Source: an uncultured Gemmatimonadaceae bacterium
Lineage (GTDB): Bacteria > Gemmatimonadota > Gemmatimonadetes > Gemmatimonadales > Gemmatimonadaceae
Length of the DNA: 64,000 bases
Reading direction: 5' to 3'
NCBI GenBank assembly: GCA_963740355.1
Contig: CAVUDW010000003.1
Location: forward strand, 192,001 to 256,000
In this document: piece by piece, positions 6,639 to 42,480 of the stretch
How the letters are laid out: every line of letters begins with the position of its first letter
Numbering within the stretch: position 1 is the stretch's first letter
Made by a program: the position numbers and the translations under genes
The notes under the pieces: generated by a model
What the model was told of the DNA's origin: nothing
The model's input: only the letters and a program-made list of their open reading frames with translations
Databases searched by the model: none

Positions 6639-7101
6639 CCGTCTTGGTCGCGGGCTTGGTGGCGACCTTCTTTGCCGGCGCCAGTCGAGTCCGCCCGTTG
6701 CGCGCCTTGGACGCCATGTCCGCGACCGTCTGGTGCTCGAGCAGGAATGCGACCTTCTCGCGCAAGGGCATCCACCGCTCGTGAATCGGGCAGGCCGCGT
6801 GGTCGGTGCACTTGCTGAGGCCAAGCAGGCATCCCGTGAACGGATCGTTGCCATCGGCCACCGTCACGATCTCACGCACCGGTGCATCAAGGGCGCGCTT
6901 CCGGATGCGATACCCGCCCCCACGGCCCTTGGCGCTATCGAGGTAGCCCAGCTGCGCGAATCGCTTCAGCACCTTCGCCAGATACGGCCCGGGCACCTCG
7001 AGGTGCGTGGCGACATCACGGTTGAGCCGGAACACGCTGGGGGTCAGCGCGAGGTGGATCAGCGCCTGCAGCGCGTATTCTTGCGTCTTGCTGAAGAGCA
7101 C
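6628..7101 (-). CDS. Rrf2-family transcriptional regulator (Fe-S type, three Cys)
   Basis: FSKTQEYALQAL, wHTH YLAKVL, SAKGRGGGY, CLLGLSKCTDHAACPIH. Start trimmed to GTG 7101; Lys-rich C-terminal tail. Confidence 0.92.
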   Translation of the reverse strand: MLFSKTQEYALQALIHLALTPSVFRLNRDVATHLEVPGPYLAKVLKRFAQLGYLDSAKGRGGGYRIRKRALDAPVREIVTVADGNDPFTGCLLGLSKCTDHAACPIHERWMPLREKVAFLLEHQTVADMASKARNGRTRLAPAKKVATKPATKTVKR

Positions 7102-31860: not shown

Positions 31861-33999
31861 GTGACCAATCCAATCCCCAGCCGGATCGCCGGCCTGCAAG
31901 AGCTCGCGAGCAATCTCTCGTGGAGCTGGAACCGTGAAGCGCGTGCGCTTTTCGCGTCCATCGATGACCGTTTGTGGCTCGCCACGCGCCACAACCCCGT
32001 CACTTTCCTCAAGCGCGTCTCGCCCGAGCGACTTCAGGCCTGTGCCGACACCCCGGCATTCCGCGCGCAGTATGACGAGGCGATGCACTGGGTTCGGACC
32101 GAGTCGCAAACCGACAACACCTGGTTTGCGAAGACGTATCCGGAGCTGACGCAGTCGAAGATCGCGTACTTCTGCGCTGAGTTCGGCCTGCACTCATCGG
32201 TCCCGATCTACTCCGGCGGCCTCGGCGTGCTGGCGGGCGATCACTGCAAGACGGCGTCGGACCTCGGCCTTCCACTGGTCGGCATCGGCTTGCTGTACCG
32301 GAACGGCTACTTCGACCAGCGCATCAATGTCGATGGCTGGCAGGAGAACATGGATGACACCTTCGACCTCGCCAGCACACCGATCACGCCAGTCCTGAAC
32401 GCCGATGGCACCGACCTCACGGTCTCGGTGCAGGTGGCAGGCCATGAAGTGCTCGTGCGCGCGTGGCGCCTGATGGTGGGCCGCGTGCCACTGTTGCTGC
32501 TCGACACCGACTTGCCGGCCAACCGTCCGGAAGATCGTGAGCTGCTGAGCCGTCTCTACGCCGGCGGTGTGGACCTGCGCCTGCGCCAGGAATGGCTGCT
32601 CGGCGTTGGTGGCGTGCGCATCCTGCGCGCGCTCAAGATGGAGCCGGATGTGTGGCATGCGAACGAAGGGCACGCCAGCTTCATGTTCATCGAGCGCCTG
32701 CGCGAACTGCGCGAGAAGGGCGTCGAGATGGCGGAAGCGATCACGAAGGTGCGTCGCGCCTCGGTGTTCACGACGCACACACCAGTGCCGGCAGGTCACG
32801 ATGTGTTCCAGCGCACCGCTGTCGAGGCGGTGCTCGGCCCGGTGTGGAAGGAGCTCGGTGTGGACGCCGATACCTTTGCGAACTACGGCTTCCATCCGCA
32901 TTACGGGAAGGACCAGTTCCACATGACTGCATGCGCGGTGCGCTTCGCCTCGAAGGTCACGGGTGTGGCCAAGATGCACGGCGAAGTCTCGCGTGAGCTG
33001 CTGCACCCGATGTGGCCCAACCGTGCGGTGAATCAGGTGCCGGTCGGTCACGTCACCAACGGCGTGCACCTGGCCACCTGGATGGCCAACCCGATCATGA
33101 GCACGCTCGACCGGCATCTCGGTCGCGATTGGGGCTTCACGCTCGACAATCCCGATACGTGGAACCGCATCATGAAGGTGCCGGATGCCGACCTCTGGTC
33201 AGCGCATCAGGAACTGAAGGATGTGCTGGTCGACCGCATCATCGAGAAGGCCCGTCGCAGCTTTGCGCGTGGGCACAAGGAAGCGACGCAGACGGTCGGA
33301 TCAGGGGTGCTGCTCGATCGCACGAGCCTGATGATCGGCTTCGCGCGTCGCTTTGCGACCTACAAGCGTGCGGATCTCCTGTTCCACGATCCGGAGCGCC
33401 TCCGCAAGATCCTCACGAACCCGAATGCACCGGTGCAGCTGGTGTTCGCGGGCAAGGCCCATCCGGCCGACGTGCCGGGCAAGACCGTCTTGCAGCGTGT
33501 GTATCAGTTCACACGGGATCCGCGCTTCGAAGGCCGCGTGGCGTTCATCGAAGACTACGACATGCATATCGCCCATCTGTTGGTACAGGGCGTGGACATG
33601 TGGATGAACCTCCCGCGTCCACCGCTCGAAGCCTCGGGCACCAGCGGCATGAAGGCGGCGCTGAACGGCGTGCCCCAGCTTTCCACCATCGATGGCTGGT
33701 GGGCGGAAGGGTACGACGGCACGAACGGTTGGGCCGTCACGGCACCGAAGAACGGTGACGAGGACGCAGCGGCAGCGAACAACGTGTATGAATTGCTGGA
33801 ACGTGAAGTCGTGCCGCGCTACTACGATCGTCCGATGCGCGATGCGGTGCCCACCAAGTGGCTCGCCACGATGAAGCACAGCATCCGTCAGGCCGGCCGA
33901 TTCTTCACCGGCGCCCGCATGGTGCAGCAGTACACGCGGGAGTACTACGCGCCGGCGATCATCGGCGGCGACTTCCCTGATGATCCGCCGACGGCGTGA
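31861..33999 (+). CDS. glgP: Alpha-glucan (glycogen) phosphorylase
   Basis: AYFCAEFG, YSGGLGVLAGD, NEGH, FTTHTPVPAGHD, TNGVH, ARRFATYKR, AGKAHP, EASGTSGMKAALNG (PLP lysine). Start GTG 31861. Confidence 0.95.
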   Translation: MTNPIPSRIAGLQELASNLSWSWNREARALFASIDDRLWLATRHNPVTFLKRVSPERLQACADTPAFRAQYDEAMHWVRTESQTDNTWFAKTYPELTQSKIAYFCAEFGLHSSVPIYSGGLGVLAGDHCKTASDLGLPLVGIGLLYRNGYFDQRINVDGWQENMDDTFDLASTPITPVLNADGTDLTVSVQVAGHEVLVRAWRLMVGRVPLLLLDTDLPANRPEDRELLSRLYAGGVDLRLRQEWLLGVGGVRILRALKMEPDVWHANEGHASFMFIERLRELREKGVEMAEAITKVRRASVFTTHTPVPAGHDVFQRTAVEAVLGPVWKELGVDADTFANYGFHPHYGKDQFHMTACAVRFASKVTGVAKMHGEVSRELLHPMWPNRAVNQVPVGHVTNGVHLATWMANPIMSTLDRHLGRDWGFTLDNPDTWNRIMKVPDADLWSAHQELKDVLVDRIIEKARRSFARGHKEATQTVGSGVLLDRTSLMIGFARRFATYKRADLLFHDPERLRKILTNPNAPVQLVFAGKAHPADVPGKTVLQRVYQFTRDPRFEGRVAFIEDYDMHIAHLLVQGVDMWMNLPRPPLEASGTSGMKAALNGVPQLSTIDGWWAEGYDGTNGWAVTAPKNGDEDAAAANNVYELLEREVVPRYYDRPMRDAVPTKWLATMKHSIRQAGRFFTGARMVQQYTREYYAPAIIGGDFPDDPPTA

Positions 34000-35279
34000 G
34001 ATCGGTCGTCATTCACGCGCACTGCTACCAACCACCGCGCGAGGACCCGTTCACGGGCCTCGTGCCGGTGGAGCGGTCGGCGGCCCCGTTCCATGACTGG
34101 AACGCGCGCATCACTGATGAGTCGTACCTCCCACTCGCCAACGCACGCGACCTGACGGCGCGTGCGCGCATCAACCTGTTCGAGTGGATCAGCTTCAACG
34201 TCGGTCCCACGCTGGCTGTGTGGCTGGAACGTGAGGCACCGGCGGTGCTGGATGCGATGCGCCTTGGCGACGCGCGCTCCGTCGAGCGACTCGGGCACGG
34301 CAACGCCATTGCGAGCGCCTACAATCATGTCATCCTCCCGCTCGCGTCGCCGCATGAACGCAAGCGGGAAATCTTCTGGGGCCTGCACGACTTCCGTGTG
34401 CGATTCGGTCGTGAGTCGCGCGGTTTCTGGTGTCCGGAAACCGCGATCGACGAAGACACGGCGCAGGCGCTGGCGGAGGCCGGTGTGCAGTTCGCCATCG
34501 TCGCACCGTACCAGATCCGCGACGGTGGGCACGACGGTCAACCACGCGTCTGGCGCGGCGCCAAGGGGCATTCCCTGCACCTCACGCCGTACCATGGTGA
34601 GCTGAGTGGCTCGATCGGCTTCGGTGACATGGCGCAGAATGGCGAAAAGCTCGCACATGCCCTCGCGCACATCGCCGAAGAACGTGGCATCGCCAGCATT
34701 GCGACCGACGGCGAAACCTTCGGCCACCACAAGCGGCACGGCGAGATGGCGCTGGCCGAGGCGATCGGTGCGCTGCGCCGCAACCAGAAGGCCACGGTCA
34801 CGAACTTCGCTGCGATCATCAATGCGCAGGAGAAGTGGCACGACTGCCAGTTGCTGTCGCCCAGTTCCTGGAGCTGTGCGCATGGCATCGAGCGGTGGCG
34901 CTCCAACTGCGGCTGTGGCGCGACACACGAAACCGGTCGCGCGCAGGAGTGGCGTGGTCCGCTTCGCGCGGCGTTGCGCTGGCTGGCGGAGGCGCTCGAC
35001 ACCGCTGACGGTGATGATCCGGAGCTGACGCCCCAGCGGAAGGCGCGCTATGGCATGTTCACCAGTTGCGGCTGGTTCTTCGATCGTTTCGAAGGGCATG
35101 AGCCGCGCTTGTTGATGCGCATGGCCGCCTTCGCCATCGCGGGGCGGAAGGACGCTGAGGAGCTCGAGGCCGGACTGGTGGCGCGCCTGATCCATGCCCA
35201 CGCCAATGATCGCTCGCTCGGCAATGGTGCCGATATCTGGTATCGCGACTTTCATCACCTGATCGCCGCGACGAAGTAG
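33996..35279 (+). CDS. GH57-family DUF3536 glycoside hydrolase (compact form)
   Basis: HAHCYQPPREDP, PFHDWNARITDESY, SFNVGPTL, YNHVILPL, FWCPETA, ATDGETFGHH, SWSCAHGIERWRSNCGC, MFTSCGWFF. Start overlaps the glgP stop (GTGA). Confidence 0.9.
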   Translation: MRSVVIHAHCYQPPREDPFTGLVPVERSAAPFHDWNARITDESYLPLANARDLTARARINLFEWISFNVGPTLAVWLEREAPAVLDAMRLGDARSVERLGHGNAIASAYNHVILPLASPHERKREIFWGLHDFRVRFGRESRGFWCPETAIDEDTAQALAEAGVQFAIVAPYQIRDGGHDGQPRVWRGAKGHSLHLTPYHGELSGSIGFGDMAQNGEKLAHALAHIAEERGIASIATDGETFGHHKRHGEMALAEAIGALRRNQKATVTNFAAIINAQEKWHDCQLLSPSSWSCAHGIERWRSNCGCGATHETGRAQEWRGPLRAALRWLAEALDTADGDDPELTPQRKARYGMFTSCGWFFDRFEGHEPRLLMRMAAFAIAGRKDAEELEAGLVARLIHAHANDRSLGNGADIWYRDFHHLIAATK

Positions 35280-35469
35280 CGAGAGACAAGCGCTGTCCTG
35301 TCCGTTGGCCGGGCCGACAGCTGAGTGTGCCAGCACGATCGTGAACGCCCGCACCTGCCGAGAGAAAATGGTCAGTGCGGGCGTTCTTGTTGTTGTGCGC
35401 GCTTGATGGACGGTGGATCAGGCGGTACTCAATAGCGCACGGCTGAAAAGCGCGCGCTGTTTCTGAAGG

Positions 35470-37725
35470 GTGGCCCTGACGGAGCGAGTCATGCTGATCT
35501 ATCCCCTGGTGCTCGACGCAGAGCAGCATGCGGGTGAAGTGCTGGACGTGCTCGCCACTCGCGACACAGAATCGTCGGCCGCCATGGTGGCCGTCCGCAA
35601 ACGTGATCGACTGCGCGTAGTGTGGTATCTGCTCCCGGCACGGGAGATTCGCACCGATTGCGAGGCCGCCGCGGCAAACGCCACGCTCGACAGTGCCTGC
35701 GATTTCGCACGGAACTACTACCGCGACGTTGCTGAGGTCTGCGACGTTCGGACACTGCCGCGTCCTTCGCTTGAAGCGCATGGATGGCTAATCGCAATGT
35801 CCGGCGGTCGTCTCGTCGGTGCAGTGCCTCCAGCATTCATGGCGGCGCCACCACCCCCGGAAGCGCCACAGGCGCCCGCGCCGGCTCCCGCTCCCGCTCC
35901 TGCTCCCGCCCCAGCGGCAGGCATGCCGCCGGCGGTGATCCTGCCCTACCCCTACATCGAGCCCGAGCCGGCGGCAGTGACACCCGCGCGCCCGAAACGC
36001 AGTGCAGCACACCGCGGACAGCGTGCGAAACCACCGACAGGCGCAGAGCAGCCGCAGGCCGCGGGGGCGGCGCCGGAAGAAGGCGTTGGCCGCGGTATCG
36101 AGGAGTCCGCCGGCACTCCGCCGGATGACGTCCTGCTGGCGCTGCCGCGCGTCGAGTCGCGCGAGCGGTATCTCCCGGGTGAGTCCGGCCTCGAACTGAC
36201 GATCGGGCTCAAAGCACCCGTCACGGCCACCGACCCGGGTGTCATGACCTTCGTGTCACCACACGCGGCGACCAGCATCGACATCGACGTCATGGTGGAG
36301 GCGCCGGACTTCACCTGCGCACAGGGTTGGAAACACACACTGACAGTCGACAAGTCTGCACCCTACGTGGCATCGCTGCAGTTGGTCCTCGTGAACGCAA
36401 CACCCGAGGATCATGCGCCCCGCATGGCCACCGTTCGCGTGCACTTCTCGTACAAGGGCCAACCCGCCGGCATGGCGGTGCGATTGGTAGCACTCGGCGA
36501 GGCAACGCTGGAGGAAGCAGAAGCGATCGCGCAGCCGACAGCTGCACCGCTGCAACTCGAAGCCAGCAAGACGCCGCTCGACCTCGTCATCCGGATTTCA
36601 CGGCGCGATCAGAGTGAGACCGCGCGCGAGTTGATCTGGACGCTGGTCGATTGTGCGCATCCGATCGCGTTGCCGGACGCCCCGCTGACGCAGAAAGTCG
36701 GCGATCGCGACACCGCTGCATCGTTCGCCGCCAAGGTCACGAGCCAGGTCGGTGGCGCCGACGGCACGGTGACGATCGACAACATCATGCGCAGCATCGG
36801 GACGCTGATCCGCCGCGCGATGCCGCCACAGGTGCTCCAGGCACTCACGGACGTGGCGAAAGCCGTCGGTCCGACGCGTCTTCCCTGGGTGTTGTTGCTG
36901 ACCGATGAGTGCAACGTGCCGTGGGAGTTGGCGCTGCTCGACGCGCCACCCGACGCCACGCGGGCACCATATCTCGGCGCGCAGTTCGCCGTCTCGCGAT
37001 GGATTCATGGCGAAACCGACATTCCGGTGCCACCGCCCGCCGTCCTCGAGGTCAGCAACCTCGCCGTCGTGCTGGGCAACTACGATGCGTCGAGCCTGGC
37101 GGCGCTGCCGCACGCGAAGGAGGAATCGACCGAACTCGCCGCGGAATCGGCGGCCGCCCCGTCGCGGTTTCCTCGCGTCACGAGCGTCGATGCCAGCGCA
37201 GACAGTCTGGTCGACCTGTTGAATGGTGCGCTGCCGTCCAACGGTGGGCCGATCGCGCCGGAACTGGTGCACTTCGCCTGCCATGGCGAGGTGCTGGGCA
37301 GCGGCGTCTCGAAGCGATCGGTCCTCTACCTCAGTGACGGTTCGCCGATGTCGGAGCTGCTCTTCGTGTCGTCGGCGCTGGGCAGGAAGACGAAGTCATT
37401 CCTCTTCATGAACGCCTGCCAGGTGGGTGTCGGCGGCGATGAGCTGGGCCAGTATGCCGGGTTCCCCGGCATGGCCATCGGTGCCGGATTCAGTGGCTTC
37501 GTCGGACCGCTGTGGAGCGTGAACGACCTGATCGCGAAGTCGATCGCGCTCGATTTCTACCGCAAGGCGTTCGGCAGCGATGGCGCATCACCGAGGGCGG
37601 TGGCCGAGGTCCTGGCCGACATGCGCTCGACGTATGCCAACGAGCCTGACCCGAAGAAGCGACAGGCCACATGGCTCGCGTACGTGCACTACGGACACCC
37701 GCACTTCACTCTTTCTCACGCGTGA
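35470..37725 (+). CDS. CHAT-domain (caspase-like cysteine protease) multidomain protein
   Basis: C-terminal CHAT domain: VPWEL, LPHAKEE, VHFACHG (His), FMNACQVG (Cys), GPLWSVND, FY, WLAYVHYG. N-terminal globular domain, Pro/Ala linker and beta-rich middle domain. Confidence 0.88.
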   Translation: MALTERVMLIYPLVLDAEQHAGEVLDVLATRDTESSAAMVAVRKRDRLRVVWYLLPAREIRTDCEAAAANATLDSACDFARNYYRDVAEVCDVRTLPRPSLEAHGWLIAMSGGRLVGAVPPAFMAAPPPPEAPQAPAPAPAPAPAPAPAAGMPPAVILPYPYIEPEPAAVTPARPKRSAAHRGQRAKPPTGAEQPQAAGAAPEEGVGRGIEESAGTPPDDVLLALPRVESRERYLPGESGLELTIGLKAPVTATDPGVMTFVSPHAATSIDIDVMVEAPDFTCAQGWKHTLTVDKSAPYVASLQLVLVNATPEDHAPRMATVRVHFSYKGQPAGMAVRLVALGEATLEEAEAIAQPTAAPLQLEASKTPLDLVIRISRRDQSETARELIWTLVDCAHPIALPDAPLTQKVGDRDTAASFAAKVTSQVGGADGTVTIDNIMRSIGTLIRRAMPPQVLQALTDVAKAVGPTRLPWVLLLTDECNVPWELALLDAPPDATRAPYLGAQFAVSRWIHGETDIPVPPPAVLEVSNLAVVLGNYDASSLAALPHAKEESTELAAESAAAPSRFPRVTSVDASADSLVDLLNGALPSNGGPIAPELVHFACHGEVLGSGVSKRSVLYLSDGSPMSELLFVSSALGRKTKSFLFMNACQVGVGGDELGQYAGFPGMAIGAGFSGFVGPLWSVNDLIAKSIALDFYRKAFGSDGASPRAVAEVLADMRSTYANEPDPKKRQATWLAYVHYGHPHFTLSHA

Positions 37726-37743
37726 ACTCCTTCGGAGACGGCA

Positions 37744-39291
37744 ATGCCTGACTTCGTGCTCGATGGTAGCGGTGCCAAGGTCGATATCGGTCAGGGGTAT
37801 GCGATTCGCGCTCCCGGCATGACCGCCACGGGTCGGACCAGCGAAGGGCCGCGTCGACCCGGCACACGATCCCCAGAAGCGCAGGAGATGCCTGCGCTGG
37901 ATGCGGCGCTGGCATCGGCGAATGTGACGGAGATCAAGCAGGTCGAGCTGAATGATGTCCGGGTGCAGCCGGCCGGCGGCGCGACCCGCGCCTCGCGCGC
38001 GCCGAATGGCGACGATGCGCTGGAACTCGACGTGCCGGTCACGAACCCGGATCAAGGGTGCATCGTGCTCAGCGTCGTCGATGGCGCCCTCACCTGGCAT
38101 GTGCCACTGAACGATGACAACTCGGTGCAGACACCGACGACGCGTGGCGGCGGCACGGGGGCGAAGTATCGGTTCCGCATTCCGAACACGCCGCCACCAA
38201 AACCCGCGCCGGGGACTGGTGGCAAGCGCGGCATCATTGGCGCCATCGGCAAGAAGTTGCTGAAGGTGCTCGTCTACCCAATCACCGACCCCATCCTCGG
38301 CCCGATCGGTGAGCACTTCACGCGCAAGTGGGAGGAGAAGAGCCGCCCGTATGGCGTGCGGACCTTCACGCCGGAGAACTTCCAGACGCCAGCCGCCGGC
38401 GCATTCACCAGCGACGACTGGCAACGCATGGCCGGTGGTCGCGCGCTGATGTTCGTTCACGGCACCTTCAGCACGGCGCACGGTGGCTTCATGCAACTGC
38501 CAAAGGCCACCTTGCAGGAACTGAGCGAGCACTATGGCGGCCGTGTGTTCGCCTACAATCATTTTTCGCTCAGTGCGGACCCGCAGGCCAACGCCAGGGA
38601 GTTCATCAAGCGCATGCGCGAGGCCGGCGTGACACTCGATGTCGATATCATCTGCCACAGCCGCGGGGGCCTCGTGTCGCGTGCGCTCGCGGAGCGTGCC
38701 GCTGGCAGTGACCAGACGGACGACGAGTTTCGTGTCGGCGCAATCGTCTTCGTGGGAACACCCAACGCCGGCACCCTGCTCGCGCAGCCGGATCACATGA
38801 TGAGCATGATCGACCGCTACACCACGGCGCTGAACGTGATTCCGACGGGCCCGGTGACGGAGATTCTCGAGGCGATCGTCACCACGGTGAAGATCGTGGC
38901 ACACGCGACCATGAAGGCGCTCGACGGACTGATGTCGATGAATCCCGACGGTGGATACCTGAAGACCGTCAACCGGCCGAGTGCAATCGGGACTCGTTAC
39001 TACGCCATCGCCGCCAACTTCGAGCCGAATACGCCAGAGACGGCGCCGCTGAAGACCGTGATCAAGCAGAAAGTCGGCGATGCAATCGTGGATCGCATCT
39101 TCAAGGAGCAGCCGAACGACCTGGTGGTGCCGACGAACGGCGTGTTCACGGCTGGCGGTCCGCATTTCCCGCTGGAGGAGACTGCGCGGCTGGTCTTCCC
39201 TTCCGAGCGCGCCATCTGGCATTCCGCGTACTTCGAGCAGCCAGAGACGGCTGCGAAGTTGAAGGAATGGCTGATGACGCCCGTGGCCTGA
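37744..39291 (+). CDS. Lipase-like alpha/beta hydrolase (PGAP1/lipase-2-like) with an N-terminal extra domain
   Basis: LMFVHGTFS oxyanion motif, ICHSRGGLVSR nucleophile, VGTPNAGT, NDLVVP (Asp), IWHSAYF (His). 18 nt after the CHAT stop, GGAGA RBS, no signal peptide. Confidence 0.88.
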   Translation: MPDFVLDGSGAKVDIGQGYAIRAPGMTATGRTSEGPRRPGTRSPEAQEMPALDAALASANVTEIKQVELNDVRVQPAGGATRASRAPNGDDALELDVPVTNPDQGCIVLSVVDGALTWHVPLNDDNSVQTPTTRGGGTGAKYRFRIPNTPPPKPAPGTGGKRGIIGAIGKKLLKVLVYPITDPILGPIGEHFTRKWEEKSRPYGVRTFTPENFQTPAAGAFTSDDWQRMAGGRALMFVHGTFSTAHGGFMQLPKATLQELSEHYGGRVFAYNHFSLSADPQANAREFIKRMREAGVTLDVDIICHSRGGLVSRALAERAAGSDQTDDEFRVGAIVFVGTPNAGTLLAQPDHMMSMIDRYTTALNVIPTGPVTEILEAIVTTVKIVAHATMKALDGLMSMNPDGGYLKTVNRPSAIGTRYYAIAANFEPNTPETAPLKTVIKQKVGDAIVDRIFKEQPNDLVVPTNGVFTAGGPHFPLEETARLVFPSERAIWHSAYFEQPETAAKLKEWLMTPVA

Positions 39292-39832: not shown

Positions 39833-41065
39833 TCAATCAGCGAGTGGAGTCTGCGGTGTGCTCACGCCGATGATGCGTGCATGGCGGGTGAGCAGCGGAT
39901 CTGGTGTGCCGAGTCGAAGCGCGGCGCGCATCGCCGCCTGTGCATCGGCATGTCGGCCGGATTTTTCCAGCGCCCAGGCGACGATGTCGTAGCCGTAGAC
40001 ATCCTTGCGAGCCCGAAGCTCTTCCTGCGCGCGCTCGAGCACTGTATCGACTTGCAGGCCGTGGTCGAGGAGGTAGAGGCTCCAGGCACGGTGATACGCA
40101 CCCGGCTGGAGACTCACCGCCACTTCGAGGGTGTGGAAATACTCGGCGGCTTTCGCGTGGTGGCCGAGAGCCTCTTCGGCATCACCAACCAGTCCCAGCG
40201 TGGCAGGGTCGAGCTGGCTCGCGATCGCCTTCTCACCCCACTCGACGACGTCGTGCCAGTCCTGTCGCGACGCCGCGAGGCGCGCCATTGCGGCGAGTAG
40301 TCGCGGATCCTCCGGTTCGATGCGCAGTCCGGCCTCGAATGCCGCTTCCGCCGCGTTGAGTCGGCCCGCGCGCAGTTCGAGGTCACCGACGCGCATCTCG
40401 AACCAGGCCTGCGTTTCGCTGGCCACATCGCGCCGCGAAAGGGCGTCGTCCCGCGCCGTCGTCAACAATGCGCGCGCTTCCGGCACATGGTTGTTCAGCT
40501 CCAGCCACCGTGCGAGACGCGCGGCGATGGTGAGCGTACTGCGAGCTTTCCAGACCGACCGGAAGAGCGTATCGGCAGCGCGATCGTCGCCCAGTTCCAT
40601 CGCAACTTCGGCCAGTGTCGCACGATACTCGGGCGTCTCCGGATCGTAGCGGACCAGGTTCTCCGCCACGACGCGCGCTTCGTTGAAGCGATGTTGCGCA
40701 AGCAGGATGGAGACGAGCGTCGACGAGGCCGCGGCATTCTTGTTCGTGCGCTTGGCGATCGAGCGACGGGCGAAGTCTTCTGCGGTGACGTAGTCCTCCC
40801 AGCCCCCACCCTCTCGCGCGCGCTGCAGGTGGAGCGCGGCGAGCTGGCCGGTGACGATCGCGCTGGTGGGATCCGCATCCAGCGCCTGATGCCAGACGCG
40901 GATCTGTACATCGCGGTTCGCCCGTTCGGAAAATCCTTGCACGCGCGGCGTCGCGGCCGGGGTGGCGGCCCGCGACTCCCGCGCGCTGCGGGCGAGCACC
41001 AAACCGCCGACCGTGACGATCACCGCCGCGGCGCTGATCAGGCGCATCGCCCGCATCGTATTCAT
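39833..41065 (-). CDS. Tetratricopeptide-repeat protein with N-terminal signal/anchor
   Basis: Repeated Ala-rich helical TPR-like units (AQHRFNEA, AEAAFEAGLRIEP, DVYGYDIVAWAL..SGR, ALRLGTPDP). Start overlaps the upstream stop (ATGA). Confidence 0.85.
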   Translation of the reverse strand: MNTMRAMRLISAAAVIVTVGGLVLARSARESRAATPAATPRVQGFSERANRDVQIRVWHQALDADPTSAIVTGQLAALHLQRAREGGGWEDYVTAEDFARRSIAKRTNKNAAASSTLVSILLAQHRFNEARVVAENLVRYDPETPEYRATLAEVAMELGDDRAADTLFRSVWKARSTLTIAARLARWLELNNHVPEARALLTTARDDALSRRDVASETQAWFEMRVGDLELRAGRLNAAEAAFEAGLRIEPEDPRLLAAMARLAASRQDWHDVVEWGEKAIASQLDPATLGLVGDAEEALGHHAKAAEYFHTLEVAVSLQPGAYHRAWSLYLLDHGLQVDTVLERAQEELRARKDVYGYDIVAWALEKSGRHADAQAAMRAALRLGTPDPLLTRHARIIGVSTPQTPLAD

Positions 41066-41619
41066 CGTGCGGCTTCGAGGTACGGGAACGTGGTCGGATA
41101 CGTGCGGACGCTGGTACTGATGTTGTCGGACGTCAGCCCGGTGACGACCGTCGCGTTCGCATCGAGCAGCTTGCCGAAGATGGCAGTCAGGCCTGCATCG
41201 ACGACGTCATCCTGGATCTTGCGGCCGCCGTATCCACCAGCGAGTGCCCAGCTGAGCCAGCCGGCGGTGTTGCCGGCGCGGTTCGGGTAGACCATCAACA
41301 TGTCGGGCACGAGCACGGCCGCGAGGGTGTTGGCGATCGTCGGGCCGCGATTGAAGGCGTTGGTGAATGCCTTGATCTTGTCGCCGAAGCCGTTTGCGAC
41401 GTCGGTGGCAGGGGCCGTGCTGTTGTGCAGGCCGTGGTCGCGCTTCATGAAGAAGACTTCGCTGACCAGCGGATTGCCGAGTCGCTCGACCTGGTTGTAG
41501 GTGCGGGTGACGTCAGGCGAGGTGGAGCCGCCACCGTTGTTGTCGTCCGAGCAGCCGGCGACGAGCAGAGGCAGGGCAAGCGCAGCACAGAGTGTGCGCG
41601 TACGGAACGTGGAACGCAT
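41062..41619 (-). CDS. DUF4331-family lipoprotein (C-terminal half of the family motif set)
   Basis: Lipobox LVAGC; QVERLGNPLVSE, LVPDML, GGRKIQDDVVD, TFPYL. Start ATG 41619. Confidence 0.8.
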   Translation of the reverse strand: MRSTFRTRTLCAALALPLLVAGCSDDNNGGGSTSPDVTRTYNQVERLGNPLVSEVFFMKRDHGLHNSTAPATDVANGFGDKIKAFTNAFNRGPTIANTLAAVLVPDMLMVYPNRAGNTAGWLSWALAGGYGGRKIQDDVVDAGLTAIFGKLLDANATVVTGLTSDNISTSVRTYPTTFPYLEAAR

Positions 41620-41663
41620 CGACAGATCCCGGAAGAGTGGTGTGATCGAATGAAGGCGGCGCA

Positions 41664-42386
41664 TCAGCGGCTGATCGTGCCCCACACGCCGAACTTCGCG
41701 TCGGCGGCGGTGCTGGACAGGAGCGCGGACTTCGGGAGCTCGATGGCGATCGCCAGCGTGTTGAACGGGCGCAGGAAGTCGACGCCAGGGGTGCGGAATG
41801 ACGTTGCGGCCGCACCATTCTGTGTCGCCAGCGGGCCGGTCGATGGGCGACGATCGGGGATGATGTTGAAGAACTGCTCGAGGTCGATCACGAACGGATC
41901 CGCCTTGAGACCAGCGAATGCCTGAATGCCTGCGGCGTCACCGCTGGCGCTGCCGACAGTGCCGGTGACGACGGTGCCGGAGGTAACGAGCATGGTCTTG
42001 GTGCCGGTCATCGTCGGCGCGACGGGACCGCGCACGGTGTACTTCTGTGCGGCGCCGACACCGTTGTCGAAGGTCACCTGAAAGACGAGATCCTCGACCG
42101 CGTCGCCGGTGTTGTCGACCTTCAGCTGGTACAGAAGGTTGGGATCGAACGAGGCGCTCTGCCCGGCAATGGGGCTCGAGGTGGTGAGCACCAGGGCAAT
42201 GCGCGAGTCGCTCGATCCCGGGAAGGCGTAGACATCGTTGATGTCCATGCGCGGGCTGAGCTCGACTTCAGGGGTATCCTGATGGTCTGAAGCGTAGACG
42301 CGCTGTCCGATTACGAGCGCTGCGGCACCGAGGGCAACCAGTGCCGTCGTGCGCAACGGGCGTCGCGAAAAGGAAGGAAGATTCAT
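41664..42386 (-). CDS. DUF4331-family secreted protein (N-terminal half of the family motif set)
   Basis: Signal peptide then ASDHQDTP, DINDVYAF, FDPNLLYQLKVDNTGDAVED, FAGLKADPFVIDL, NTLAIAIELP, VWGTISR. Start ATG 42386. Confidence 0.85.
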   Translation of the reverse strand: MNLPSFSRRPLRTTALVALGAAALVIGQRVYASDHQDTPEVELSPRMDINDVYAFPGSSDSRIALVLTTSSPIAGQSASFDPNLLYQLKVDNTGDAVEDLVFQVTFDNGVGAAQKYTVRGPVAPTMTGTKTMLVTSGTVVTGTVGSASGDAAGIQAFAGLKADPFVIDLEQFFNIIPDRRPSTGPLATQNGAAATSFRTPGVDFLRPFNTLAIAIELPKSALLSSTAADAKFGVWGTISR

Positions 42387-42480
42387 GTGTGGCGGCCGTG
42401 AGCGGGTGAGCGGCAGGTAGTTCACCGGTGACCTGTGAGAGGTCACACAGAGCCGGTCAGGATGGACCGGTTGCTCGAGC

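Follow-up and report, generated by a model that had tools for sequence, protein, structure and literature searches.

We analysed a 64,000-nucleotide (nt) stretch of DNA from an uncultured Gemmatimonadaceae bacterium (assembly GCA_963740355.1, contig CAVUDW010000003.1, positions 192,001 to 256,000 of the forward strand; hereafter the window), in which a gene for a CHAT-type cysteine protease (gene 1) is followed after an intergenic gap of 18 nt by a gene for an alpha/beta hydrolase (gene 2). Across bacterial phyla, the protease and the hydrolase are co-inherited as a single accessory unit, and they have repeatedly been fused. An initial annotation of the window had proposed that the protease licenses a zymogen hydrolase within a self-destruct module, and we consider this, with moderate confidence, the best current explanation for the pair. 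Protease-licensed death effectors are an emerging common design in bacterial immunity, mirroring animal caspase biology. The same annotation had described an isolated two-gene unit with an 18-nt gap; both open reading frames (ORFs) were present as described, with glycogen genes upstream and a DUF6702 gene downstream. Residues of gene 1 are numbered from GTG 35470 throughout.

35470..37725, + strand: gene 1, TCAD7/beta-sandwich/CHAT cysteine protease; ORF with stop at 37725, 751 amino acids (aa) from GTG 35470
37744..39291, + strand: gene 2, DUF7362 + DUF7379 alpha/beta hydrolase, proposed zymogen effector; ORF from ATG, 515 aa

Conserved pairing and fusion of protease and hydrolase

A species-representative genome collection yielded 470 candidate stretches, 455 of which encode a relative of the hydrolase; the best 80 of these 455 were examined, and setting aside 4 loci without upstream sequence left 76 that could be assessed. 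A caspase-fold protease is encoded directly upstream on the same strand in 65/76 loci and is fused to the hydrolase in the other 11, so that the earlier view of a functional unit conserved as neighbours holds in 76/76 assessable loci. Among the 65 adjacent pairs, the upstream CHAT gene was found by tblastn in 63 (median gap 26 nt) and as a TCAD7-CHAT gene by Pfam only in 2. The 11 fusions comprise eight proteins with an N-terminal Peptidase_C14 and a C-terminal hydrolase (seven of 1120-1216 aa and one frameshifted), two hydrolase-CHAT proteins and one hydrolase-C14 protein. Three fusion topologies involving two caspase-fold families would otherwise be hard to explain, which argues that protease and hydrolase act on or with each other. 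Pairwise identities of the hydrolases and of the CHAT proteins are correlated (Pearson 0.89, Spearman 0.75; 820 pairs from 41 loci), a correlation to which host relatedness contributes. No third conserved gene emerged from an all-against-all BLAST of 1859 ORFs near the hydrolase (nine close relatives and ORFs below 130 aa dropped), in which the largest next gene clusters occurred in at most 9/71 loci.

At least 10 phyla contain full-length hydrolase relatives (38-50% identity), among them Gemmatimonadota, Acidobacteriota, Pseudomonadota, Desulfobacterota-type deltaproteobacteria, Actinomycetota, Rhodothermales/Bacteroidota, Chloroflexota, Planctomycetota and Eisenbacteria. Profile matches among 1.84 billion cluster representatives numbered 4448 at a threshold of E 0.001 and 1486 at one of E 1e-30; of the top 150 from these 4448, 31 are at least 700 aa long, and 23 of these 31 carry Peptidase_C14 (19) or CHAT (4). 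In plasmid records, 9 of 11 distant matches to the hydrolase core lie inside genes annotated as caspase or CHAT; on the Ruegeria pomeroyi megaplasmid an AAA ATPase is encoded after a hydrolase-CHAT protein, and on an Anabaena plasmid a caspase-hydrolase protein adjoins a CHAT-TPR protein. This large family is absent from PADLOC and NCBIfam, both of which gave 0 matches for either protein of the window, as the initial annotation had anticipated for named defence systems.

The heads and neighbours of the module vary. We found a TPR-S head in one family member (P0263), RRM in 1/43 partner proteases, a CHAT-AAA_16 protein at L024 and caspase-nSTAND1-WD40 proteins at L068 and L072; together with the kinase-TPR neighbours described below, these recall the sensor swapping described for protease-effector modules by Evans et al. 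2025 (bioRxiv preprint, PMC12642450). Distant fused relatives adjoin AAA/STAND nucleoside triphosphatases (NTPases), an AbiEii gene and insertion sequence (IS) elements.

Domain architecture of the protease

35497..35829, + strand: N-terminal TCAD7-type alpha/beta domain, residues 10-120 (Pfam, model)
35845..36114, + strand: Pro/Ala-rich disordered linker, residues ~126-215 (low model confidence at 139-212, sequence)
36127..36495, + strand: beta sandwich (Ig/macroglobulin-like), residues 220-342 (model, structural search)
36889..37695, + strand: CHAT caspase-fold protease domain, residues 474-742 (Pfam, invariant residues, structural matches)
37282-37284 and 37417-37419, + strand: catalytic codons of His605 and Cys650 (sequence)

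CHAT (Pfam PF12770) was detected at residues 474-742 of the gene 1 product (E 1.1e-15, 58.3 bits, cut-off 24). We confirmed the positions of the intact His605/Cys650 dyad noted previously, which lies in the motifs HFACHG (residues 601-606) and NAC (residues 648-650), and found H605, G606, N648 and C650 to be invariant across 43 homologues. An AlphaFold2 model built on a 43-row alignment (predicted local distance difference test, pLDDT, 82.5; predicted template modelling score, pTM, 0.82) displayed the domain order that had been read from the sequence, namely an alpha/beta domain (10-120), a disordered Pro/Ala segment (139-212, pLDDT <50), a beta sandwich (220-342) and a CHAT fold extending to residue 751. 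The closest structural matches of the CHAT domain were separase (Z 24.2, root-mean-square deviation 3.9, 316 residues aligned), Csx29/TPR-CHAT of Craspase (Z 22.7; Foldseek with the protease model, E 1e-11) and gingipain R (Z 20.7), followed by the anti-sigma factor DdvA and SAVED-CHAT (Z 17.9). The beta sandwich resembled Ig-like domains (Z 8-9) and, judged from tblastn alignments that begin near residue 224 in most homologues, is conserved jointly with the CHAT domain.

The N-terminus reads as a borderline, divergent member of TCAD7 (Pfam PF19973, "ternary complex associated domain 7"), scoring 22.3 bits on the protein and 26 bits in a six-frame genome search against a cut-off of 24; the domain was found in 29 of the 43 aligned partner proteases at E 0.001 or better (best 5.6e-29). 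With gaps scored as mismatches, gene 1 was 31-37% identical to eight close relatives in TCAD7, 19-44% in the linker, 47-63% in the beta sandwich and 74-83% in CHAT. TCAD7 is the fastest-evolving folded part of the protein and a candidate sensor or regulatory head; such rapid change would be expected of a part facing a partner that itself changes, for example a phage product. Its beginning follows a beta-alpha-beta-beta-alpha order in the model, reminiscent of CBS domains. A TCAD7 profile search of PDB sequences gave matches at E 0.32 and E 0.99 only, the second of them a CBS-pair protein, and the ESM Atlas placed a CBS cluster at rank 3 with 0.88, under the lead level of 0.9; the wide structural search was dominated by the CHAT and beta-sandwich domains, and "CBS-like" is a weak lead.

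Five further CHAT open frames (767-1375 aa, L011-L015) occur elsewhere in the same genome. DUF7379 has one match in this genome, and among the CHAT frames it is the partner of gene 1 only.

Hydrolase fold and candidate cleavage sites

37822..38247, + strand: DUF7362 region (Pfam residues 27-168), beta-rich domain and disordered linker (Pfam, model)
38143-38145 and 38227-38229, + strand: codons of the candidate sites R134 and R162 (alignment)
38230..38343, + strand: residues 163-200, long predicted helix (165-200) with a Gly-rich hydrophobic beginning (GIIGAIGKKLLKVLVYP) (model, hydropathy)
38446..38973, + strand: DUF7379 core of the alpha/beta-hydrolase fold, residues 235-410 (Pfam, invariant residues)
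38659-38661, 39118-39120 and 39220-39222, + strand: catalytic codons of Ser306, Asp459 and His493 (sequence)

The gene 2 product matched DUF7379 (PF24096; E 3.4e-55, 187.4 bits, cut-off 33) and, at residues 27-168, DUF7362 (PF24062; 31.4 bits, cut-off 27.6). Its previously noted Ser-Asp-His triad is intact: Ser306 (CHSRGG), Asp459 (NDLVVP) and His493 are invariant in 41 sequences, as is the oxyanion pair H239-G240, and the extra N-terminal residues ahead of the core proved to be the DUF7362 domain and a linker. The model (41-row alignment, pLDDT 79.4) consists of a beta-rich part (1-147), a disordered linker (158-168 with pLDDT <50), a long helix spanning 165-200 and, from residue 204 on, the alpha/beta-hydrolase core, which holds a large helical insert at 349-452. 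Matches to lipase, PGAP1 and thioesterase families in Pfam were all sub-threshold, and an ESM Atlas search with the DUF7362 region gave no usable match. The top Foldseek matches were generic alpha/beta hydrolases, with family I lipases prominent (E 1e-7 to 1e-6, 14-18% identity). Similar to family I lipases of Pseudomonas, Burkholderia and Proteus, the protein has the alpha/beta-hydrolase fold and a Ser-Asp-His triad; unlike them, it has an H-S-R-G-G elbow, the helical insert and a putative pro-domain, and is predicted to be cytoplasmic.

The lipase-like and gingipain-like fold matches would also suit an ordinary exported or nutritional protease and lipase that happen to share an operon, an explanation that we regard as extremely unlikely. 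In agreement with the initial annotation, neither protein has a signal-peptide-like N-terminus in a hydropathy check, no signal-peptide predictor having been run, and neither has a transmembrane-grade 19-residue window (hydropathy maxima 1.36 and 1.24). Strict pairing and fusions across phyla would moreover be unexpected for independent secreted enzymes.

Four arginines stand out in the hydrolase's N-terminal region when conservation is counted in a 72-sequence alignment that includes fused forms: R42 is kept in 54/69 sequences, R85 in 70/71, R134 in 69/70 (followed by Gly in 59) and R162 in 71/72 (followed by Gly in 44 and by Ser in 24). Since the fused forms sit within this alignment, they too keep the arginine sites. 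Each of the four is followed by a small residue (Gly/Ser/Ala) and preceded by a variable Ala/Pro/Gly/Thr stretch, and all lie in low-pLDDT loops of the model. These four Arg-(Gly/Ser/Ala) dipeptides are candidate protease sites, bearing the signature expected of such sites when compared with the R|G cuts of LcHydrolase (see below). Arginine specificity of the protease would be in line with its structural matches, as gingipain R is Arg-specific and fits the Arg sites, and separase also has Arg specificity. On the model, a cut at R162 would make residue 163 the new N-terminus of the hydrolase. The region of residues 163-200 contains the second most hydrophobic 19-mer of the protein (Kyte-Doolittle 1.22, hydrophobic moment 0.38), and G166, G169, K174, P179, D182 and G186 are at least 90% conserved. 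A complex prediction for residues 215-751 of the CHAT protein with residues 1-215 of the hydrolase, both with alignments, gave a score of 0.00 and a mark of 0.32, which speaks neither for nor against binding.

An alternative explanation is that the enzymes are coupled otherwise than as protease and substrate, either as parallel co-effectors or with the hydrolase controlling the protease, for instance through removal of an acyl or ester group carried by a ligand or by the protease itself. A functional link is proven by adjacency and fusion, but its direction is not, and fusions occur in both orders. In addition, a second, different CHAT gene adjoins the pair in 6/20 diverse loci (L024, L028, L044, L075, L079 and L088) and also stands beside the fused forms L077 and L083, with AAA_16, CBM9 or PD40 partners among these second CHAT genes; they hint at protease cascades in some lineages and would allow arrangements more complex than a single step. 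However, only the hydrolase has an additional conserved domain whose disordered loops hold Arg-Gly/Ser sites, kept when fused, and the sole tested caspase/alpha-beta-hydrolase pair runs from protease to hydrolase. We therefore consider coupling of another kind quite improbable.

Proposed mechanism

In the protease-licensed mechanism that we favour, the CHAT protease would be held inactive until the TCAD7 head, perhaps with the beta sandwich, registers a signal. The active protease (His605/Cys650) would then cut the hydrolase after arginines in exposed loops, most likely at R162|G and R134|G and possibly at R85 and R42, and the cut would detach or loosen the DUF7362 pro-domain. The freed hydrolase, starting at about Gly163 with its Gly-rich hydrophobic helix first, would turn active on an ester substrate, most plausibly a membrane lipid, and its activity would kill or arrest the cell in an abortive-infection or conflict response. 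Overall, the initial interpretation is supported in part: its cleavage-licensing logic is plausible, as it has a precedent in Evans et al. 2025 and fits the Arg-Gly/Ser sites in disordered loops, and no defence-island context was found (see below).

A more specific version would make the pair a minimal, NTPase-free suicide switch, in which TCAD7 is a CBS-like sensor of a small molecule (nucleotide or metabolite) or a sensor of a phage protein, and in which the R162 cut unmasks the Gly-rich amphipathic helix that takes the lipase to the membrane. We put this forward as a speculation that is unlikely to hold. If true, licensing by helix unmasking would differ from the internal double cut of LcHydrolase, and the substrate class of caspase-associated hydrolases would have been named.

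The family offers several handles. R134 and R162 constitute a directly testable cleavage map, and the natural fusions (caspase-hydrolase, hydrolase-CHAT, hydrolase-caspase) are ready constructs for asking how self-cleavage is prevented. The family departs from the sole tested caspase/hydrolase pair in that its pro-domain is discrete, its protease is of the CHAT type and a very fast-evolving TCAD7 head stands where an NTPase sensor would be, and a second tractable family would help to settle the substrate of caspase-associated hydrolases.

Comparison with known systems

The nearest functional precedent is the LcCaspase-LcHydrolase pair of Lysobacter capsici AZ78. According to Evans et al. 2025 (PMC12642450), LcCaspase cuts LcHydrolase at R73|G and R117|G, the co-expressed LcHydrolase fragments kill Escherichia coli, cleavage at both sites is needed for toxicity, and the substrate of the hydrolase was not known to the authors. 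The preprint also names the alpha/beta hydrolase as one of the most abundant protease-associated effectors that are uncharacterised, and it reports 161 hydrolase homologues. Similar to this pair, the window unit has the protease gene first, an adjoining alpha/beta hydrolase, conserved Arg-Gly sites and a conserved and widespread pairing.

The gene pairing itself goes back further. Kaur, Burroughs, Iyer and Aravind (2020, eLife; PMC7159879) state that in VMAP ternary systems the caspase domain is always accompanied by an alpha/beta hydrolase encoded next to it, and that a related hydrolase occurs in GAP1-N1 GTPase systems. The window pair resembles these vWA-MoxR-VMAP and GAP1-N1 systems in combining a caspase-superfamily peptidase with a neighbouring alpha/beta hydrolase, and its protease head matches the Pfam family named after them (TCAD7). 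The term "TCAD" is absent from the main text and two supplements of Kaur et al. 2020. In contrast to these systems, the pair stands alone, with no MoxR, vWA, VMAP or GTPase gene among its 12 neighbouring ORFs; a MoxR-type AAA_3 gene lies near the pair in L032 only, among 20 flank-scanned diverse loci. A vWA-MoxR-VMAP ternary system was ruled out on the grounds that genes for the MoxR AAA+ ATPase, vWA and VMAP are missing from those 12 ORFs.

Five differences separate the window unit from the units of Kaur et al. and Evans et al., namely the hydrolase architecture, the C-terminal CHAT, the TCAD7 head, the lack of an NTPase partner and the predicted cut positions. In all likelihood, it operates like them. 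The initial annotation had rated the novelty of the pair too high: the caspase/alpha-beta-hydrolase pairing (Kaur et al. 2020) and the zymogen activation of one such hydrolase (Evans et al. 2025) are already in print, and the protease-licensing logic is not new. The uncharacterised elements are this hydrolase family, its pro-domain design and the fast-evolving TCAD7 head.

Other systems share single elements with the pair. As in Craspase, where Csx29 cleaves Csx30, and in SAVED-CHAT/PCaspase cascades, a CHAT protease would serve as the switch, in keeping with the structural matches to Csx29 and SAVED-CHAT given above. Unlike those systems, the window pair comes without Cas genes, a TPR or a SAVED domain, and its partner is modelled as an enzyme zymogen instead of Csx30 or a second caspase. 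Type III-E Craspase was rejected, neither gene 1 nor its neighbours showing a Cas or TPR-CHAT architecture and the two proteins having 0 PADLOC matches, no search of the window for CRISPR arrays having been run.

In bacterial gasdermin operons, a death effector under autoinhibition is set free by a protease, caspase-like or other, that is encoded next to it. The Fig. 1 legend of Evans et al. 2025 (PMC12642450) includes the bacterial gasdermin (bGSDM) in its list of effectors associated with proteases. The window effector is, by contrast, a Ser-Asp-His hydrolase and not a pore-forming gasdermin, and a gasdermin system was ruled out by the DUF7362+DUF7379 partner and the 0 PADLOC matches. A cyclic-oligonucleotide-based antiphage signalling system (CBASS) with a phospholipase was likewise ruled out, as there is no cyclase among the neighbours and no PADLOC match, and the hydrolase is not a patatin.

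Occurrence in close relatives and possible roles

In nine close relatives with the hydrolase, the CHAT gene lies directly upstream in 9/9. The downstream genes are the same as in the window in 7/8 close relatives with downstream sequence (exception L004), and the upstream genes in 5/7 with upstream sequence (exceptions L003 and L006). Identity between the window and these relatives was 88-94% for the phosphorylase, 74-80% for the hydrolase and, over full or near-full length, 55-65% for the CHAT protein. In a genome of the same genus (G207, GH57 89% identical), the GH57 and DUF6702 genes lie ~110 nt apart at an empty site without the pair, and DUF7379 was above cut-off in 8/201 sampled genomes of the phylum, the genome of the window included; two of the 201 (G057 and G097) gave sub-threshold DUF7379 matches only. 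The pair is therefore dispensable and patchy. No target-site duplications were evident by eye at the indel junction, for which no alignment was made.

The same biochemistry could serve a physiological purpose, as a chromosomal trait in which stress, starvation or development triggers lipid remodelling or a programmed-death switch. This would suit the place of the pair among glycogen-metabolism genes, with neighbours kept in most close relatives, and the lack of defence genes nearby and of a PADLOC match; stress-response roles for protease-effector modules are also raised by Evans et al. 2025 (PMC12642450). However, the patchy occurrence (8/201 genomes of the phylum, with an empty site within the genus), the presence of the module across phyla at 38-50% identity, the very fast evolution of the N-terminal head and the AAA/STAND NTPases, AbiEii gene and IS elements beside distant fused relatives fit a conflict system better than a housekeeping switch. 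We regard a physiological role as unlikely.

Several observations weigh against the protease-licensed self-destruct module that we prefer. The initial annotation had pointed to proximity to defence islands as a check, and none was found: there are no defence genes among the 12 neighbouring ORFs of the pair in the window, and among 117 flanking ORFs from 20 diverse loci, integrase, transposase, restriction and CRISPR families were all absent at a threshold of E 1e-5. The hydrolase had no match in phage records, and no match in plasmid records covers 80% of it. The fixed position of the pair in most close relatives would be less usual for a defence island. Neither a trigger nor an NTPase sensor is encoded next to the pair, and TCAD7 is a domain of no known function; the names and accessions of DUF7362 and DUF7379 were found in no paper in the literature searched. 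The designation "lipase" reflects generic fold similarity (TM-score on the query 0.27-0.31, 14-18% identity), and the conserved arginines could be structural instead of scissile.

The LcHydrolase precedent also may not transfer to the window hydrolase, the two having been compared by length and motif spacing only. LcHydrolase has 296 aa and no N-terminal domain, compared to 515 aa with DUF7362 in the window hydrolase. Both of its cuts lie between the oxyanion HG (residues 8-9) and the nucleophile Ser (~183), as counted by eye on the Table S1 row, whereas the candidate sites of the window hydrolase lie in DUF7362 and the linker and not in the catalytic fold; by the same count, the spacing from HG to Ser is 66 residues in the window hydrolase and ~174 in LcHydrolase. 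Their proteases differ as well: LcCaspase has an N-terminal caspase domain with its catalytic Cys at residue 129, and the window protease has a C-terminal CHAT behind TCAD7 and the beta sandwich.

Gene boundaries and neighbouring genes

35343..35395, + strand: terminator-like 12-bp perfect inverted repeat (35343-35354 / 35375-35386), then a T-rich run TTGTTGTTG (direct sequence reading)
37734..37737, + strand: gene 2 ribosome-binding site GGAG, within the 18-nt gap

The start of gene 1 given in the initial annotation needs a small change: the ORF and its GTG at 35470 were confirmed, but the real start is probably ATG 35491, giving 744 aa, because GGAG stands 6 nt before this ATG and close homologues open with MLIYPL. 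Residue numbers would then drop by 7 (His598/Cys643).

On the 5' side, the pair is preceded by GlgA (- strand) and by phosphorylase and GH57 genes (+ strand), and on the 3' side it is followed by the convergent DUF6702 gene and then by TPR and DUF4331 genes. The 12 neighbouring ORFs in the window encode solely glycogen enzymes, DUF6702, TPR, DUF4331, an FAA hydrolase and DUF1801. The inverted repeat at 35343-35395 follows the GH57 gene and has a 20-nt loop, the length of which explains why a consensus terminator scan had no match there; read from the sequence, it closes the upstream glycogen operon in a terminator-like manner and sets that operon apart from the protease/hydrolase pair. An antisense ORF across gene 2 (37588-39222, - strand, 544 aa) had no Pfam match and is a typical spurious frame of high-GC DNA.

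The GH57 gene (33996-35279, + strand) is short, with 427 aa, and matches only positions 86-152 of the 284 in the DUF3536 profile. Its first ~215-351 residues align, in the family's other genera, within open frames that are 477-858 aa long. Close relatives share the short form, as does G207, which lacks the pair, and the short form is thus not caused by the pair.

Further genes stand near the module in other lineages. Ser/Thr kinases of ~850-1160 aa lie within a few kb of it in seven loci (L034, L052, L077, L083, L084, L091 and L093), four of which hold caspase-hydrolase fusions; TPR repeats were seen in the scanned kinase of L077. A same-strand ORF of ~530-1000 aa is found directly 5' of the CHAT gene, ~2.5 kb upstream of the hydrolase, at L048, L049, L050, L057, L058, L059, L071 and L073, in Variovorax, Luteibacter, Dyella, Dokdonella and Burkholderiaceae hosts. 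It had no Pfam match in the three scanned examples (L048, L049 and L057) and is a possible third component of that subclade, one not encoded beside the pair in the window. In four Gemmatimonadota loci, a giant protein of ~1400-1960 aa is encoded 3' of the module (L024:11824-17436, L041:10878-16757, L045:13468-17655 and L047:9318-15062); of the two scanned, that of L041 had no Pfam match and that of L024 a peptidoglycan-binding domain only. The caspase-hydrolase fusion of a Longimicrobium metagenome-assembled genome (L067:5936-9467) is frameshifted near 6660 and represents a pseudogene or an assembly error.

Downstream of the pair, the DUF4331 profile is split over two ORFs on the - strand (41062-41685 and 41664-42446) that lie in different frames and overlap by 22 nt, covering profile positions 125-236 and 250-420. 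Close relatives and G207 show the same split, with an overlap of similar size, which suggests two real genes or a conserved frameshift.

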